NCBI GenBank assembly: GCA_000995185.1
Contig: LCET01000001.1
Span: 103,028-167,027, forward strand
Source: Candidatus Woesebacteria bacterium GW2011_GWC1_42_9
GTDB taxonomy: Bacteria; Patescibacteriota; Microgenomatia; UBA8517
Reading direction: 5' to 3'
DNA length: 64,000 nucleotides
Below, in pieces: positions 38,745-46,397 of the stretch. A model generated the notes under the pieces. It saw only the letters and a list, made by a program, of their open reading frames with translations, did no database searches and had not been told where the DNA came from. A program made the translations under genes and the position numbers. Positions within the stretch are counted from its first letter, which is position 1; the number at the start of each line of letters is the position of its first letter.

Positions 38745-39287
38745 GTGGGAAGGACATATGTTTCAGATGGGGTTGTGTTGGCTTCGCGTGATTACAGTGA
38801 GGCGGATAAAATATTGGTAGTTCTCTCGAAAGATTTTGGCAGAGTGTCGCTTATTGCCAAAGGCGTTAAAAAGCTCAAAAGCCGTAAGCGCGGGCACGTC
38901 GAAATCTTTAATCATATAAAGTTCCAAGCTGCTCGGGGGAAATCTTTGGATATTATTACCGAGGCAGAAATTATCAATGCTTTTTCAAGGGTCAGGAAAA
39001 ACTTAGTAAAGACTTCTGTCGCCTATTATTTTGCGGAGGTGATCGGGCGTACTACCCGCGACCACGAAAGAAATGAAGTGCTGTACGGACACCTATTAGA
39101 TAGCCTCACGAAGCTCCAAAAAAGCGAGAATTTGAAAGAATTAAGGCGTGATTTTGCGGTAAGGGCTTTGGAGATCCTAGGCTTCTGGCCAAAAAACAAA
39201 AAAATCGCCGATCCGGACAGATTTATCGAGGAAATCCTCGAGCGTGAGCTAGCGAGCATTAGAGTGGGCAAAAGGCTTCAAGGGTAG
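38745..39287 (+). CDS. recO: DNA repair protein RecO (short form).
   Basis: GTG start. N-terminal OB-fold region DGVVLASRDYSEADKILVVLSKDFGRVSLIAKGVKKLKS matches RecO_N. Confidence 0.65.
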   Translation: MGRTYVSDGVVLASRDYSEADKILVVLSKDFGRVSLIAKGVKKLKSRKRGHVEIFNHIKFQAARGKSLDIITEAEIINAFSRVRKNLVKTSVAYYFAEVIGRTTRDHERNEVLYGHLLDSLTKLQKSENLKELRRDFAVRALEILGFWPKNKKIADPDRFIEEILERELASIRVGKRLQG

Positions 39288-39311: not shown

Positions 39312-40409
39312 ATGAATACTAAATCTTTAAATACAAACTTACATAGAGCAAATAAAGCAAAGAAAGATGAGTTTTATACTCAGCTTATTGATATTGAAAA
39401 AGAACTGAAGCACTACAAAGACCAGTTTCGAGGCAAGGTGGTTTATTGCAATTGTGATGATCCATTTGAAAGTAATTTTTTCAAATATTTTGCCGCTAAT
39501 TTCAACGCCCTAAAACTTAAAAAGTTAATCACCACCAGTTATACAAAGTCGCCAGTTGCCGGAGGACAGTTGCCACTCTTTGAAGTCAAGGGCTTAAAAC
39601 CGAAAGGCAAAGAGCCGTTTATGATTGTACTCAATGAAGTGACAGATACCGATGCAGACGGCGCGGTGGGGCTTACTGATGTGAAGTGGCTCTTGAAAAA
39701 TGATGCCAATATCGCTACCTCACTCAAGGGTAACGGAGATTTTCGCAGCGAGGAGTGCATCAAACTTCTAAAAGAAGCAGATATTGTGGTAACCAACCCG
39801 CCATTTTCACTCTTTCGCGAATATGTGGCGCAGTTAGTCGAGTATAAGAAGAAATTTATAATTCTTGGCGACCAAAACGCAATTACATACAAAGAATTTT
39901 TTAAACTTATAAAAGAAAACAAGCTATGGCTTGGTTATGATAACGGTGGCACAAAATGGTTTCAAGTCCCAATGGATTACGATATACCAACAGAGTCAAG
40001 AAAGAAAATTGAGAATGGAGTGCAGTATTTTAGTATGGGGCGGATTATGTGGTTTACAAATTTAGACACCACAAAAAGACACGAGAAGCTGACTTTATAT
40101 AAAAAATATAGTCCGAAAGAATATCCAAAATATGACAATCATGATGCAATTGAAGTCTCTAGGGTTTTAGAAATTCCAATGGACTACAAGGGATTCATGG
40201 GTGTGCCAATTACATTTGTTGATAAATATAATCCTGATCAATTTGAGATCATTGGATTGCTTGCTGATAAGCGGGAAAAATCAGATGCACTTATACAAGG
40301 TATCCCTACTTATCTTGATGAACAGCATAAAAAATATGTAGGTGCTATTGTTAACGGAAAAGCAACTTATGCACGGATTATTATTAAAAATAAGAAAGTA
40401 AAAAAATAA
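39312..40409 (+). CDS. N6-adenine DNA methyltransferase, EcoRI-methylase-like family.
   Basis: KDEFYTQLIDIEKEL..Y...FRGKVVYCNCDDPFESNFFKYF and motif IV VVTNPPFSLFREY (the NPPF catalytic tetrapeptide). Confidence 0.65.
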   Translation: MNTKSLNTNLHRANKAKKDEFYTQLIDIEKELKHYKDQFRGKVVYCNCDDPFESNFFKYFAANFNALKLKKLITTSYTKSPVAGGQLPLFEVKGLKPKGKEPFMIVLNEVTDTDADGAVGLTDVKWLLKNDANIATSLKGNGDFRSEECIKLLKEADIVVTNPPFSLFREYVAQLVEYKKKFIILGDQNAITYKEFFKLIKENKLWLGYDNGGTKWFQVPMDYDIPTESRKKIENGVQYFSMGRIMWFTNLDTTKRHEKLTLYKKYSPKEYPKYDNHDAIEVSRVLEIPMDYKGFMGVPITFVDKYNPDQFEIIGLLADKREKSDALIQGIPTYLDEQHKKYVGAIVNGKATYARIIIKNKKVKK

Positions 40410-40410
40410 T

Positions 40411-41517
40411 ATGAAAATTGATCTAAACAAAATACCAATTCACGAAGTGATAGTCGGCTACAGAGATAGCGCCGAGGAGGGCGTGGTGGCTTATGGTGGC
40501 AAACTTGATATTCGTCCAAAATATCAGCGTGAGTTTGTATACAAGGAAAAGCAACGCAACGCAGTGATAGAGACTATAAATAACAATTTTCCTCTTAACG
40601 TGATGTACTGGATGATTAGAGAAGATGGCGGCTATGAAGTACTGGACGGCCAACAGCGCACCATCAGCATTGGGCAGTATGTTACGGGTGATTTTTCGCT
40701 GAACGACCGCTTTTTTCATAATCTGACCAAAGAGGAGCAGGATAAAATTTTGGATTATGAGCTTATGATTTACTTCTGCGAGGGAACGGACAAAGAACGG
40801 TTGGATTGGTTTAGAATTATCAACATCGCCGGAGAAAAATTGACCGATCAAGAAATACGCAACGCAGTTTATACCGGCCCGTGGCTTTCTGACGCGAAAA
40901 TCAAATTTAGTAAATCAAATTGTGCGGCGTATCTCTTGGCAAACGACGGCGGACAATTAGTTAGTGGTTCGCCAATTCGCCAAGAGTATTTGGAAACAGT
41001 ACTTTCGTGGATTAACGATGGCAAGATAGAAGATTATATGGCCAAACATCAGCATGATGAAAACGCCGATGAGCTATGGCAGTATTTTCAAGATGTGATA
41101 GTCTGGGTACGAATAATTTTTACGAATTATCGCCGAGAGATGAGCAATGTGCCGTGGGGAGTTTTGTATAACCAATTCAAAGATAAAAAATTTGATTCAA
41201 AAAAACTGGAAAAAGAAATAACCGAGTTGATGCAAGACGAAGATGTGACCAAAAAGTCCGGTATTTACGAATATGTTTTAACTAGAAATGAAAAATTTTT
41301 AAACATCCGCGCTTTCACCGACAAAATGAAACGAGAAGCGTATGAGAGACAAAAAGGCGTTTGTCCGCACTGCAAAGGCGAGAACAAGAAAAAGAAATGG
41401 GAAATTAAGGAAATGGAAGCCGACCACATCAAGCCATGGCATGAAGGCGGAAAAACGACAGTAGAGAATTGCCAGATGTTGTGCCAAGACGATAATAGAA
41501 AAAAATCAGGAAAATAA
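40411..41517 (+). CDS. DUF262 (ParB/Srx-like, GmrS-type) domain protein with a C-terminal HNH nuclease.
   Basis: VLDGQQRTISIGQY (the DGQQR motif of DUF262). C-terminus CPHCKG...ADHIKPWHEGGKTTVENCQMLCQDDNRKK (HNH with CxxC...C..C Zn ligands). A 1-nt gap to the upstream MTase suggests translational coupling. Confidence 0.7.
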   Translation: MKIDLNKIPIHEVIVGYRDSAEEGVVAYGGKLDIRPKYQREFVYKEKQRNAVIETINNNFPLNVMYWMIREDGGYEVLDGQQRTISIGQYVTGDFSLNDRFFHNLTKEEQDKILDYELMIYFCEGTDKERLDWFRIINIAGEKLTDQEIRNAVYTGPWLSDAKIKFSKSNCAAYLLANDGGQLVSGSPIRQEYLETVLSWINDGKIEDYMAKHQHDENADELWQYFQDVIVWVRIIFTNYRREMSNVPWGVLYNQFKDKKFDSKKLEKEITELMQDEDVTKKSGIYEYVLTRNEKFLNIRAFTDKMKREAYERQKGVCPHCKGENKKKKWEIKEMEADHIKPWHEGGKTTVENCQMLCQDDNRKKSGK

Positions 41518-41551: not shown

Positions 41552-43018
41552 TTGCTGAGAATAAATAGTATGAAAATTAGTCAAATCTACAAATTAAATA
41601 AAACTCAGCATGAATTAGATTTTGTTGACATAGATCCCTCAAAAGACAAAGCAGTTTTTCTTGACCCCTTCTTTATTTCTACTAGACCTCAACCGTGGTG
41701 TATAGATGTAAGTAGAACAATAAAAAGTTTTTTTCAACACGCGATTGACCTTATTAAATCAGATGAGGTTGATAAAGCTCGTGCTCTTTTTGTTCATTTA
41801 AACGAACCGAATGAAATATGTTTAGGTTTATCGAGATCCAAACCTCAAGGTAGGGGTGCCGGCAATGATGATTCAAGACGCATATATGAAAGTATTTTGG
41901 AGAGTAAGGCAGTTCAAACTGGGTTAGTAGAAGATTTGGAAGATACGGCTATTTTTATTGATCGGATAGCTAGAGATAAGGTATCTGATATGACAACTAA
42001 CATAATTAGGAAACATCTTGTTGGTTACACTAAATCACAGTGCGAATTGTGGAATATTCCTTTGACCAGCGATGTACCATCTGGATTTTTTTGGGATCCA
42101 GCAAATAAAAGATGGGAAATTGTGCACACCGACAGATTAGTCGTAAGAAACAAACCCTTATTGCTAGTTCCAAAAATATCAGTTTCTTTCCATAAAGAAT
42201 ATATTGATCAAAAATATTATCAGCACTTCGCCTTAAATTATTTACAGGGTGAGCATTTAGCAAAAGATAGCAGTTTGGTGCGTGAAAGAACATTAAAGGA
42301 TGGTTCAAAACATAGATATGTAACAAAAAAAGATATAAAAGAGAAGGAAGCTCCTTTTTCTAAAGAATTTTTGCGTGAGTTTACAAAAAGTCATCCTGAA
42401 GTTTTTAAAAATTTCAGAAGTAGTAAAGCTCAATCCGTTCAACCAATCGGAAATAAAGATCTGGAAGATATTGATGTTGGCGCTTTAGTCGATTACTTGA
42501 TTAACTTACTTAATTCCTTGACTGCGGGTGGGGACAACGCAAGCGCATATCATAAATTGATCATCGGAGTACTAGAATTTATTTTCTACCCATCATTAAA
42601 TAATCCAGTCAAAGAGAAAGAAATAAACGACGGCAGAAAGCGAATTGACATAACTTTCGACAATTCAGCAAATGATGGATTTTTTTACACTCTCCACAAT
42701 CTCCATCAAATTACTTCAAGATATATTTTTGTTGAGTGCAAAAATTATTCGGAAGATCCAAAAAATCCAGAAATTGATCAGTTGGCCGGTAGATTTTCGG
42801 TTAATACAAGTAAATTCGGCTTTTTGGTTTGCAGATTGATAAGTGATAAAAATTTATTTCTGAAAAGATGCCAAGATATGTGGAAACAGAAAAATGAGTT
42901 GATTATCCCGTTGACCGATCTGGAAATCATCGCTATTTTAAAAAATATAAAATCAGGAGTGATACGAACAGAAGAACAATTACTCAATGATTTAAGAAGG
43001 AAGATAATTTTGTCGTAG
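41552..43018 (+). CDS. Putative restriction endonuclease. It has a C-terminal Mrr-cat-like PD-(D/E)xK domain and a large uncharacterised N-terminal domain.
   Basis: C-terminal GRKRIDITFDN...(27 aa)...IFVECKNY matches the Mrr_cat pattern G.IDh...(E/Q)xKxY. Confidence 0.5.
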   Translation: MLRINSMKISQIYKLNKTQHELDFVDIDPSKDKAVFLDPFFISTRPQPWCIDVSRTIKSFFQHAIDLIKSDEVDKARALFVHLNEPNEICLGLSRSKPQGRGAGNDDSRRIYESILESKAVQTGLVEDLEDTAIFIDRIARDKVSDMTTNIIRKHLVGYTKSQCELWNIPLTSDVPSGFFWDPANKRWEIVHTDRLVVRNKPLLLVPKISVSFHKEYIDQKYYQHFALNYLQGEHLAKDSSLVRERTLKDGSKHRYVTKKDIKEKEAPFSKEFLREFTKSHPEVFKNFRSSKAQSVQPIGNKDLEDIDVGALVDYLINLLNSLTAGGDNASAYHKLIIGVLEFIFYPSLNNPVKEKEINDGRKRIDITFDNSANDGFFYTLHNLHQITSRYIFVECKNYSEDPKNPEIDQLAGRFSVNTSKFGFLVCRLISDKNLFLKRCQDMWKQKNELIIPLTDLEIIAILKNIKSGVIRTEEQLLNDLRRKIILS

Positions 43019-44458: not shown

Positions 44459-45754
44459 TTGGGAGGAATGGTTAACTTTTTTGAAAAACAGTTTGATAAT
44501 TTAGCAAAAAAGATTCAACTGCGTTGGAAAAATCTTATTTTAGGGTTAAAATCTTATTTCAAAAAATTGATTTTTCCTCTGTATCTTTTCCCGATTAAGC
44601 TTGTTACTTATACCGCTTATTACTTGGTCAAGTTTTTAATCAAGTTTATTTTTGCTTTCATCAGCCTTATTTTTGAAACAATTATTTTTCCCTTCAAAAG
44701 TCTTAAAAACTTTTTAAAGTCAATTTTTATTCTTGGTATTTTTATATACCTTTTAGCCTCTGTTTTTGTAATTGCTGATTATTTAACAAACCAGTACGGC
44801 TATATCGGCAAATTCCTTTGTTCTTTTGGAGTGAGAGATAAAATGGTAAATTCTGTTGTTCGTGTCGTCGGCGGATATTCTGAAGGCACAGGGTTTTTCA
44901 TAAGCCCCGACCAAGTGATTACCAACTTCCATGTTATTGCTGATGAGCCAAGCCCTAAAATTATTTTTCCCGATGGAAACTTTGTAACTCCGGTAAAAAT
45001 TCTTGGCAATAAAGATGTTGACTTGGCAGTCTTGTTTACAGAAGCAAAGTATCCGGATCTGGTTTTGCCTTTGCCGGATAGCATAGGCTTTAAGGAGGAC
45101 GAACCTCTTATTGCTACCGGCTACGCTTTGGGAACTGACTTAACTGGTAAGGCAACGAGCCTTAGGGGAAGGTTTATTGATTTTAGGAAATCCAAGCGAA
45201 TGCCCATTGGCTACATCCAAACTGACATCAGTTTGGTCAAGGGCATGAGCGGCGGCCCGCTGGTCGATCAATGCGGGAGTGTAGTTGGGATAAATACCAT
45301 TAGTCTTGCCGGATTATCCTTGTTTATCAACGCAGACTGGGCAAAAACTATGGTGCCGGATTTTACCGACCAGAATATTACTAAAATCGAGGTTGACCCT
45401 TCTCTCTCTCCGGAGGAAGCCGTGAGAGCTTTTTATACCTATCTTAAAGCCCGCCGGATGGAAGACGGCTTTAACTTATTGAGCGAAGAATATCTTAAAA
45501 AGACAAACTTTGAGGAATGGACCAACCGCTTCACTGATATTTTGGATGTTGATGTTATCAAATCCGAGAAATTTGAAAATACCAACGATATTGCTTTTGT
45601 AAAATTCTCAACTAAAAATTGGGTGGACGGGGAAGCAGAAGTACATTTTTACGAGGGTACTTGGCAAACGGTCAAAGAAGACGGGGTGTACAAAATGTTC
45701 AAAAGCAAAATTGTGGAAGTTGAAAACCCAGATTGGGATTGGTTCTATGAATAA
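44459..45754 (+). CDS. Membrane-anchored trypsin-like serine protease (S1/Trypsin_2) with an uncharacterised C-terminal domain.
   Basis: 3-4 N-terminal TM helices. Catalytic triad contexts TNFHVIAD (His), DVDLAVLF (Asp) and KGMSGGPLVD (Ser). Confidence 0.7.
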   Translation: MGGMVNFFEKQFDNLAKKIQLRWKNLILGLKSYFKKLIFPLYLFPIKLVTYTAYYLVKFLIKFIFAFISLIFETIIFPFKSLKNFLKSIFILGIFIYLLASVFVIADYLTNQYGYIGKFLCSFGVRDKMVNSVVRVVGGYSEGTGFFISPDQVITNFHVIADEPSPKIIFPDGNFVTPVKILGNKDVDLAVLFTEAKYPDLVLPLPDSIGFKEDEPLIATGYALGTDLTGKATSLRGRFIDFRKSKRMPIGYIQTDISLVKGMSGGPLVDQCGSVVGINTISLAGLSLFINADWAKTMVPDFTDQNITKIEVDPSLSPEEAVRAFYTYLKARRMEDGFNLLSEEYLKKTNFEEWTNRFTDILDVDVIKSEKFENTNDIAFVKFSTKNWVDGEAEVHFYEGTWQTVKEDGVYKMFKSKIVEVENPDWDWFYE

Positions 45755-46397
45755 GCTCTCGCCATCAGACTTCGCCTACCTCTATGAGGAGTGTAAGCTT
45801 TGCTACTACCTCAAAGTCAAGCACAAGATTTCCCAGCCTAGCATGCCCATGCCTGGCGTCTTTAGTGCGATAAATACCCGCCTCCAAACTCCGCTTGTCG
45901 GCAAAAATTTGCAAGTCATATCCAAAAGACTCCCCGAGGGTGAGGTTATAAAGCAAGAAGGATGGGTAGAGTCTAAAACTGTCCCTGGGACAAATGTTTA
46001 CCTCAAGGGTAAGTATGATTTGTTAGTTAAAAACATGGACGAGACTTATACCCTGGTCGACTTAAAGATCACCCAGCCGGATGAAGGCAAGATTGAAAAG
46101 TACCAGACCCAATTGTCGGCTTATAAATTTGCCTTGGAAAATCCCAAAACTGGCAAGCCGACCCAGATCGTGAGGACCGGATTACTTCTTTTTTATCCCG
46201 ACACAGTGACTTTTAAAGCGGGGAATGCGATATTTAAATTCCCGCCGACTTGGATGGAAGTGCCGATCGACGAAAGAGTTTTCTTTGGGTTTATGAAGGA
46301 AGTTAACGAGCTTTTAAATGGACCCACTCCAAAAGAAAGCAAAACTTGCAAATGGTGCCAGTACCGGCACATTGGGGATAAGTTAGCTCACTCGTGA
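45747..46397 (+). CDS. Cas4/RecB-like PD-(D/E)xK nuclease with four Cys that could form an Fe-S cluster (standalone, no CRISPR nearby).
   Basis: N-terminal ECKLCYY. GKYDLLV (motif I Asp). LVDLKI (DxK). QTQLSAYKFAL (QxxxY). C-terminal TCKWCQY. The ORF-track start is 45711; the Met at 45747 overlaps the protease stop by 8 nt. Confidence 0.6.
   Translation: MNKLSPSDFAYLYEECKLCYYLKVKHKISQPSMPMPGVFSAINTRLQTPLVGKNLQVISKRLPEGEVIKQEGWVESKTVPGTNVYLKGKYDLLVKNMDETYTLVDLKITQPDEGKIEKYQTQLSAYKFALENPKTGKPTQIVRTGLLLFYPDTVTFKAGNAIFKFPPTWMEVPIDERVFFGFMKEVNELLNGPTPKESKTCKWCQYRHIGDKLAHS

Follow-up and report, generated by a model that had tools for sequence, protein, structure and literature searches.

A methyltransferase gene and a DUF262-HNH nuclease gene as a probable two-gene restriction-modification cassette in a Woesebacteria genome

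In a 64,000-nucleotide (nt) stretch of the genome of Candidatus Woesebacteria bacterium GW2011_GWC1_42_9 (contig LCET01000001.1, positions 103,028 to 167,027; hereafter the window), a gene for a predicted DNA methyltransferase (M) is followed directly by a gene for a predicted nuclease (R), in which an N-terminal DUF262 domain of the ParB/Srx type is combined with a C-terminal HNH domain. The locus raises the question of what a DUF262 protein, a kind of nuclease usually associated with the sensing of modified DNA, does beside a methyltransferase. From the structure of the pair and from its comparison with homologous loci in genomes, plasmids and viruses, the window pair is probably a functional, methylation-protected two-gene restriction-modification (R-M) cassette that was acquired horizontally and in which the DUF262-HNH protein is the nuclease.

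The M gene occupies positions 39312-40409 on the forward strand (365 amino acids (aa), ATG start), and the R gene occupies positions 40411-41517 on the same strand (368 aa, ATG start). At the junction (40407-40413), read directly as ...AAA TAA T ATG AAA..., the TAA stop codon of M (40407-40409) is separated from the ATG of R (from 40411) by the single spacer base 40410. Both genes are intact and encode the full set of catalytic motifs, and they are separate, neighbouring genes for a methyltransferase and an endonuclease on one strand, which is the layout of Type II systems. A preliminary description, made from the letters of the window, had placed both open reading frames (ORFs) at these positions with 1 nt between them, and had called M an EcoRI-like, gamma-type N6-methyladenine (m6A) methyltransferase with an NPPF motif and R a DUF262 protein with a DGQQR motif and a C-terminal HNH domain; all of these assignments held when the junction was inspected and the proteins were searched against profiles.

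When the M/R junction was compared among 82 scorable loci, the commonest forms were an overlap of 4 nt (28 loci), an overlap of 11 nt (12 loci) and a gap of 1 nt (10 loci), the form in the window thus being one of those typical of the cassette. About 70 of these junctions fell within 24 nt in either direction and 43 were overlapping. The geometry of its junction suggests translational coupling of M and R in the window. A single polypeptide of 688 aa (P0275) was also found that carries EcoRI_methylase, GmrSD_N and HNH domains together; it would be either a natural fusion of M and R or an artefact produced by a frameshift where the two genes overlap.

The assignment of M is based on a match to the Pfam family EcoRI_methylase (PF13651) that covers the whole profile (positions 1-345 of 345; E = 1.8e-143, 478 bits for a cutoff of 26.4), and on a match to the PADLOC profile MTase_II (PDLC03297; E = 8.7e-132). 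Its motif IV, the catalytic, adenine-binding NPPF (residues 162-165, positions 39795-39806 on the forward strand), sits within the conserved block DIVVTNPPFSLFREY, and N162, P163, P164 and F165 were invariant in the alignment. The true M.EcoRI, which adjoins R.EcoRI on an E. coli plasmid (L093:2501-3478), was 45% identical to M by tblastn and 52% in the alignment; with this enzyme included, the motifs DEFYT, CNCDDP (N-terminal S-adenosylmethionine region), GDFRS and NPPF were still invariant. NEPF replaces NPPF in the M of a Lactiplantibacillus pentosus plasmid (L002:1934-2980). A search of the sequences of solved structures with M gave no match. AlphaFold2 gave a model of M of mediocre quality, with a predicted local distance difference test score (pLDDT) of 66.7, and its Foldseek matches were generic Rossmann methyltransferases; therefore, the variable modules of M that are described below could not be placed on a DNA interface. 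A further relative of M was found on plasmid p9 of Lactiplantibacillus plantarum (L095:2180-4282) in a protein of 700 aa annotated as Dcm, the N-terminal half of which is 45% identical to the M of the window. This protein, in which an EcoRI-family m6A methyltransferase appears to be fused to a C5-cytosine methyltransferase, is part of a separate system.

R matched the PADLOC profile REase_II (PDLC03418, 'Type II restriction enzyme') over its full length (positions 1-372 of 372; E = 2.8e-137). The DUF262, or ParB/Srx-like, domain was located at positions 40510-40872 (residues 34-154; GmrSD_N, PF03235, E = 5.6e-17), with an intact DGQQR motif at 40645-40659 (residues 79-83), and the HNH (His-Me finger) domain at 41362-41508 (residues 318-366; PF01844, E = 3.2e-11), all on the forward strand. 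The E-values of the Pfam matches of M and R lie far outside what chance would give. Among 38 homologues of two subfamilies, the DGQQR motif, a PxYQR box (residues 36-40) and the HNH residues C318, C321, D338, H339, N353, C358 and N362 were invariant. In the predicted structure, the fold of the N-terminal domain matched BrxU, SspE and ParB/Srx proteins, and the HNH portion was unreliable (pLDDT <50); when the sequences of solved structures were searched with R, only weak HNH matches were obtained (the HNH of a group II intron maturase, and McrA). The invariance of DGQQR hints at binding of a nucleoside triphosphate (NTP), which would be atypical for a Type II enzyme. As this nucleotide-binding motif has been kept, R probably binds or hydrolyses NTP, by analogy with BrxU, GmrSD and SspE.

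The association of the two genes was analysed in 80 genome loci, retrieved by similarity to R alone and drawn from most bacterial phyla and some archaea, and in 80 IMG/VR loci (L096-L175) out of 229 positive viral contigs. An EcoRI-family M was found upstream of R on the same strand in all the genome loci except three, two of which (L012 and L014) are truncated by contig ends, the third (L019) being a RhuM-R arrangement with no M nearby. The same M was found upstream of R in 80 of the 80 viral loci, so that M adjoins R in about 157 of the 160 loci overall. The linkage of M and R, in this order, is thus near-obligate in the hundreds of genomes, plasmids and phages that carry the pair. The pair was detected on plasmids of 7.5-11 kb in Lactiplantibacillus, Ligilactobacillus, Pediococcus and Moraxella, and on large, conjugative plasmids in Aeromonas, Gordonia and Variovorax. 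An isolated phage, Flavobacterium phage vB_FspS_laban6-1, also carries the cassette, beside its tape-measure gene (L004, 2778-5140). Such a distribution over plasmids and phages is as would be expected of a mobile R-M system.

The family to which R belongs is large. A word-indexed search with two subfamily queries returned at least 8000 homologous proteins with either query. When 1.84 billion cluster representatives were scanned exhaustively with HMMER, 5278 proteins matched at E <= 1e-3, and 508, representing clusters at 50% identity, did so at E <= 1e-30; nearly all the matching proteins were 360-410 aa long. The best 120 matches were 84-92% identical to the R of the window, and the taxa assigned to the named ones among them are Patescibacteria, Elusimicrobiota, Omnitrophota, Zixibacteria and Endomicrobiales; identities as high as these across such phyla point to a recent horizontal spread of R. 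The window matched the groundwater genome of Candidatus Woesebacteria GW2011_GWB1_43_14, and 16 contigs, among them GCA_000993325.1 and one from a groundwater metagenome, encode an R identical to that of the window.

No third gene was conserved beside the M-R pair in the 80 genome loci, and nothing was conserved downstream of R; as no downstream gene is co-conserved, the cassette is taken to be a two-gene unit. In about a dozen of the genome loci, M and R are separated by a passenger gene, or by two, with both partners left undisturbed, the most frequent insert being RhuM (L011, L012, L019, L022 and L050), with Bro-N (L066 and L075) and DUF2130 plus T5orf172 (L009) also found. RhuM, Bro-N, DUF2130 and T5orf172 are known passengers of R-M operons. 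In a minority of loci, a gene for a protein of 68-69 aa with an HTH_3 (XRE-type helix-turn-helix) domain lies directly 5' of M (L013:2223-2429, L091:941-1150 and L092:800-1009), and looks like a Type II controller protein. No controller protein was found at the window cassette, where the stop codon of the upstream recO gene leaves only 24 nt before the start of M and thus no space for such a gene. In five loci from Gracilibacteria or Peribacteria (L027, L030, L041, L043 and L056), M or R was seemingly split by in-frame TGA codons when read with translation table 11; the Gracilibacteria loci are probably cases of an alternative code in which UGA encodes Gly, and not pseudogenes.

As R and M both match full-length PADLOC profiles for Type II systems, the pair already has its place in a catalogue among the Type II R-M systems, and the window copy does not stand out within this catalogued and apparently uncharacterised family. 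The preliminary description had considered the pairing of a DUF262 protein with a methyltransferase unusual, and had suggested that it could be a Type II-like R-M system with DUF262-HNH as the restriction component. The latter suggestion is supported by comparative genomics, that is, by the linkage, the mobility, the associated HTH_3 genes and the PADLOC profile of R. The pairing is unusual in concept, given that most of the DUF262 nucleases studied depend on modification, but not within this family of R proteins, where linkage to M is the rule. In the cassette so conceived, M would place N6-methyladenine on target sites in the DNA of the host, and R, produced from the same transcript directly after M, would cut DNA lacking this mark by means of its HNH site, with NTP bound or hydrolysed by the DUF262/ParB-Srx domain to gate or stimulate cutting. 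We infer in this way the block of cleavage by methylation, the dependence on NTP, the translational coupling and the target sequence.

To compare how the two partners have evolved, conservation was analysed in 67 genome and plasmid loci, with the viral set as a replicate, and in a pooled set of 121 loci. R was evenly conserved over its length, with a mean pairwise identity of 0.63 and values of 0.42-0.83 in 10-aa windows except for a loop at residues 321-330, and it had no variable module, although its conservation is inflated to some extent by the selection of the loci by similarity to R. M consisted of a conserved core (identity 0.69) broken by three hypervariable modules, V1 to V3, with a column conservation of 0.01-0.39. 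Module V1 (39543-39734, forward strand, residues 78-141) had a column conservation of 0.10-0.39 compared to 0.65-0.97 in the core and came in two major length types, of 38-44 aa and 64-70 aa. Module V2 (39936-40049, forward strand, residues 209-246), modelled by AlphaFold2 as a beta-hairpin with moderate confidence, came in four major sequence types plus rare ones, and these were shuffled relative to the types of V1. Module V3 (40248-40367, forward strand, residues 313-352; column conservation 0.01-0.21) had more than 30 types in the 67 loci and fell into 37 sequence clusters in the pooled loci, with lengths of 20-89 aa.

The modules were combined in 56 different ways in the 67 loci, with all the major combinations of V1 and V2 present, and in 80 ways in the pooled set; the contrast between a mosaic M and an even R recurred in the independent set of viral loci. 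Nearest neighbours in R (mean identity 79%) shared the V1 type in 86% of the pooled cases, the V2 type in 47%, the V3 type in 21% and all three in 13%. Between the window and L090, for instance, the R proteins are 86% identical, yet their V1 modules are of unequal length and 9% identical. The core of M.EcoRI has a median identity of 67% to that of the cassette M proteins, a value that falls within the range of the latter among themselves (median 71%). The cassette M of L058 has the V2 type of M.EcoRI, and that of L015 has its V3 type. Therefore, M.EcoRI draws on the same shuffled pool of modules as the M proteins of the cassette.

The nuclease of an orthodox Type II system usually evolves faster than the methylase, the specificity of which it must follow. 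The combination of a constant nuclease with a modular methylase appears, at the sequence level, to resemble Type III or Type I systems more than orthodox Type II ones. Three readings of the pattern are open: the modules V1 to V3 may have no role in specificity, R may recognise just a core sequence that is covered by every variant of M, or M may guide R.

Of the systems already known, that of EcoRI is closest on the side of the methylase. M belongs over its full length to the family of M.EcoRI, and the V2 and V3 modules of the latter are alleles found in cassette M proteins. The nucleases, in contrast, differ, being DUF262-HNH in the cassette and PD-(D/E)XK in R.EcoRI, as does the order of the genes, which is M then R with an overlapping or abutting junction in the cassette and R then M in EcoRI; moreover, the variable modules of the window M differ from those of M.EcoRI, and GAATTC is not specifically avoided. 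The Type II enzymes KpnI, Hpy99I, NlaIII, PacI and SphI share with R an HNH catalytic domain and with the cassette a cognate methyltransferase; to our knowledge, none of these five enzymes has a ParB/Srx NTP-binding domain.

The target of the cassette was sought through palindrome avoidance, with observed/expected ratios under a maximal-order Markov model for all palindromes of 4 and 6 bp in 0.97 Mb of host loci plus the window. The sole palindromes to stand out were GGCC, CTAG and GATC, which are avoided in general, and neither AATT (0.99) nor GAATTC (0.72) was an outlier. This approach to the target site was dropped, as it gave no signal specific to the system. As M is about 50% identical to M.EcoRI, its target could possibly be related to GAATTC or AATT.

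Several observations weigh against a classical, methylation-protected cassette. Conservation is higher in R, which lacks variable modules, than in M with its three shuffled ones, and an even R beside a mosaic M would be odd if R independently read the sequence methylated by M. In the host loci and the window, no palindrome was specifically depleted. On a plasmid of Chryseobacterium taklimakanense (NZ_CP034172.1; L006:2860-5086), an intact R lies beside a frameshifted M, which is awkward for classical R-M unless it is a sequencing error, and the RhuM-R locus mentioned above has kept R with no M nearby. The DUF262 nucleases characterised so far (GmrSD, BrxU and SspE) are all modification-dependent or phosphorothioate-sensing and not modification-blocked. 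A literature search found no paper characterising the DUF262-HNH family of R biochemically, and the PADLOC papers are silent on whether the REase_II profile derives from a tested enzyme or from a REBASE prediction. In a catalogue of restriction endonuclease folds from 2008, HNH ranks second in size among the fold classes of Type II enzymes, with no HNH subfamily containing ParB or DUF262 domains, and Sse9I is placed in PD-(D/E)XK.

The cassette lies between a short recO gene and a gene similar to that of Gly-tRNA synthetase, in a stretch with a G+C content of 0.34-0.41 compared to 0.44-0.48 in its flanks. The RecO protein (38745-39287, forward strand) has 180 aa and matches TIGR00613 at positions 4-146 of 239, most of the C-terminal domain being absent. 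On the other side, 34-52 nt 3' of R, lies ORF3 (41552-43018, forward strand; likely true start at ATG 41570), which encodes a protein of 482-488 aa with full-length matches to Pfam DUF8370, to the PADLOC candidate defence gene PDC-M36A and to phrog_27295, and with a D...ExK-like motif (IDITF...FVECK) at its C-terminus. ORF3 was considered as a third subunit or as the true restriction endonuclease and was rejected, as none of the other 80 genome loci contains a homologue of it; it is a separate defence candidate, outside the M-R cassette. The preliminary description had missed this unrelated neighbour, as well as the greater conservation of R compared to M and the mosaic nature of M. Further downstream are two overlapping genes on the forward strand. 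The first (44459-45754) encodes a trypsin-like serine protease that has a membrane segment at its N-terminus, and the second (45711-46397) a PD-(D/E)XK/Cas4-like nuclease that has a Cys cluster at its C-terminus. Together, the cassette, ORF3, the protease and the Cas4-like nuclease look like a small defence island that lies between recO and the Gly-tRNA-synthetase-like gene. No flanking direct repeats, att repeats, tRNA genes or integrase were found around the cassette as island borders, and no promoter or terminator pattern at the locus was convincing above the shuffled expectation.

In a rival explanation, the site would be chosen by M, in a logic like that of Type III systems: R, having no specificity of its own, would bind M, the modules of M would choose the site, and DUF262 would act as an NTP-gated switch or clamp, as ParB does with cytidine triphosphate (CTP), licensing the HNH domain to cut at or away from unmethylated sites. 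We regard this explanation as unlikely, though several observations favour it. R is even (0.42-0.83 per 10-aa window) beside M modules at 0.01-0.39, in the viral loci as well; 80 module combinations occur in 121 loci, with all three modules shared by only 13% of nearest R neighbours; and pairs of R at 83-86% identity accompany M modules that are about 10% identical and different in length. The invariant order of M and R with overlapping junctions, as in mod-res operons, the invariance of DGQQR and the existence of one 688-aa fusion protein point in the same direction. Nevertheless, the role of V1 to V3 in specificity is putative, V3 being of low confidence in the model and perhaps a tolerant loop, and the C-terminal block of M, which is kept even in M.EcoRI, could hold a fixed specificity; the sole fusion may be a frameshift artefact, and part of the evenness of R comes from the way in which the loci were chosen. 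Type III systems share with the cassette the order mod then res, tight junctions, a conserved nuclease and a methyltransferase with shuffled variable modules. The likeness to enzymes such as EcoP15I (Mod/Res) seems limited to operon order and conservation pattern, as R has neither a superfamily 2 (SF2) helicase/ATPase nor a PD-(D/E)XK domain, and M is of the EcoRI family and not a beta-class Mod. That R is a sequence-blind nuclease recruited and targeted by the mosaic M, with the ParB/Srx NTP switch in place of the helicase motor that drives Type III and Type I enzymes, is a doubtful proposition too, and if anything a shade more so.

It is very improbable that R is a modification-dependent nuclease of Type IV, similar to GmrSD and directed against modified phage DNA, with M providing an epigenetic or anti-restriction mark and no protection. 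All the characterised DUF262 nucleases do act on modified DNA, R shares with GmrSD, BrxU and SspE an N-terminal DUF262 domain with DGQQR, the structural neighbours of this domain are BrxU and SspE, and some homologues of R are annotated as McrA by the Joint Genome Institute (JGI). However, enzymes of this type are typically solitary in the genome, whereas an EcoRI-family M adjoins R, often with overlapping genes, in nearly every locus; the C-terminus of R is a PF01844 HNH with no match to DUF1524, R is about half the length of GmrSD or BrxU, and PADLOC groups it with its type II restriction endonucleases and not with its type IV models. As R is almost always linked to a methyltransferase, it would presumably be blocked by modification and not dependent on it. 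The least probable of the alternatives is that the cassette is mainly a selfish addiction or mobility module, or a weapon with which phages degrade the DNA of their host, with little defence benefit for Woesebacteria. The identity of 84-92% in R across Patescibacteria, Elusimicrobiota, Omnitrophota and Zixibacteria, the presence of R in a phage of Flavobacterium and on 229 contigs of IMG/VR, and the location of the cassette in a lower-GC stretch of the window are in line with this idea. Yet the window copy is found among genes of defence type (PDC-M36A/DUF8370 and the Cas4-like PD-(D/E)XK nuclease) and is not flanked by an integrase, att repeats or tRNA genes; besides, the idea concerns the biological role and not the mechanism, and is compatible with the favoured reading of the pair as a methylation-protected R-M cassette.

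The window copy adds little by itself, and the interest lies in the mechanism of the family rather than in the locus. The R family is large and mobile, being found in bacteria, archaea, plasmids and phages, and it pairs a ParB/Srx NTP-binding domain, otherwise a feature of modification-dependent nucleases, with a protective methyltransferase. Orthodox Type II systems do not show the pattern of this family, in which R is constant and M is a mosaic with modules in common with M.EcoRI. If R were indeed sequence-blind and guided by M, the family would represent a distinct class of R-M system, in which the shuffling of three modules of M would re-target an unchanged R. Bacteria of the Candidate Phyla Radiation (CPR) are largely devoid of clustered regularly interspaced short palindromic repeats (CRISPR) systems, and for this reason cassettes such as this one may be a main line of defence in these organisms.

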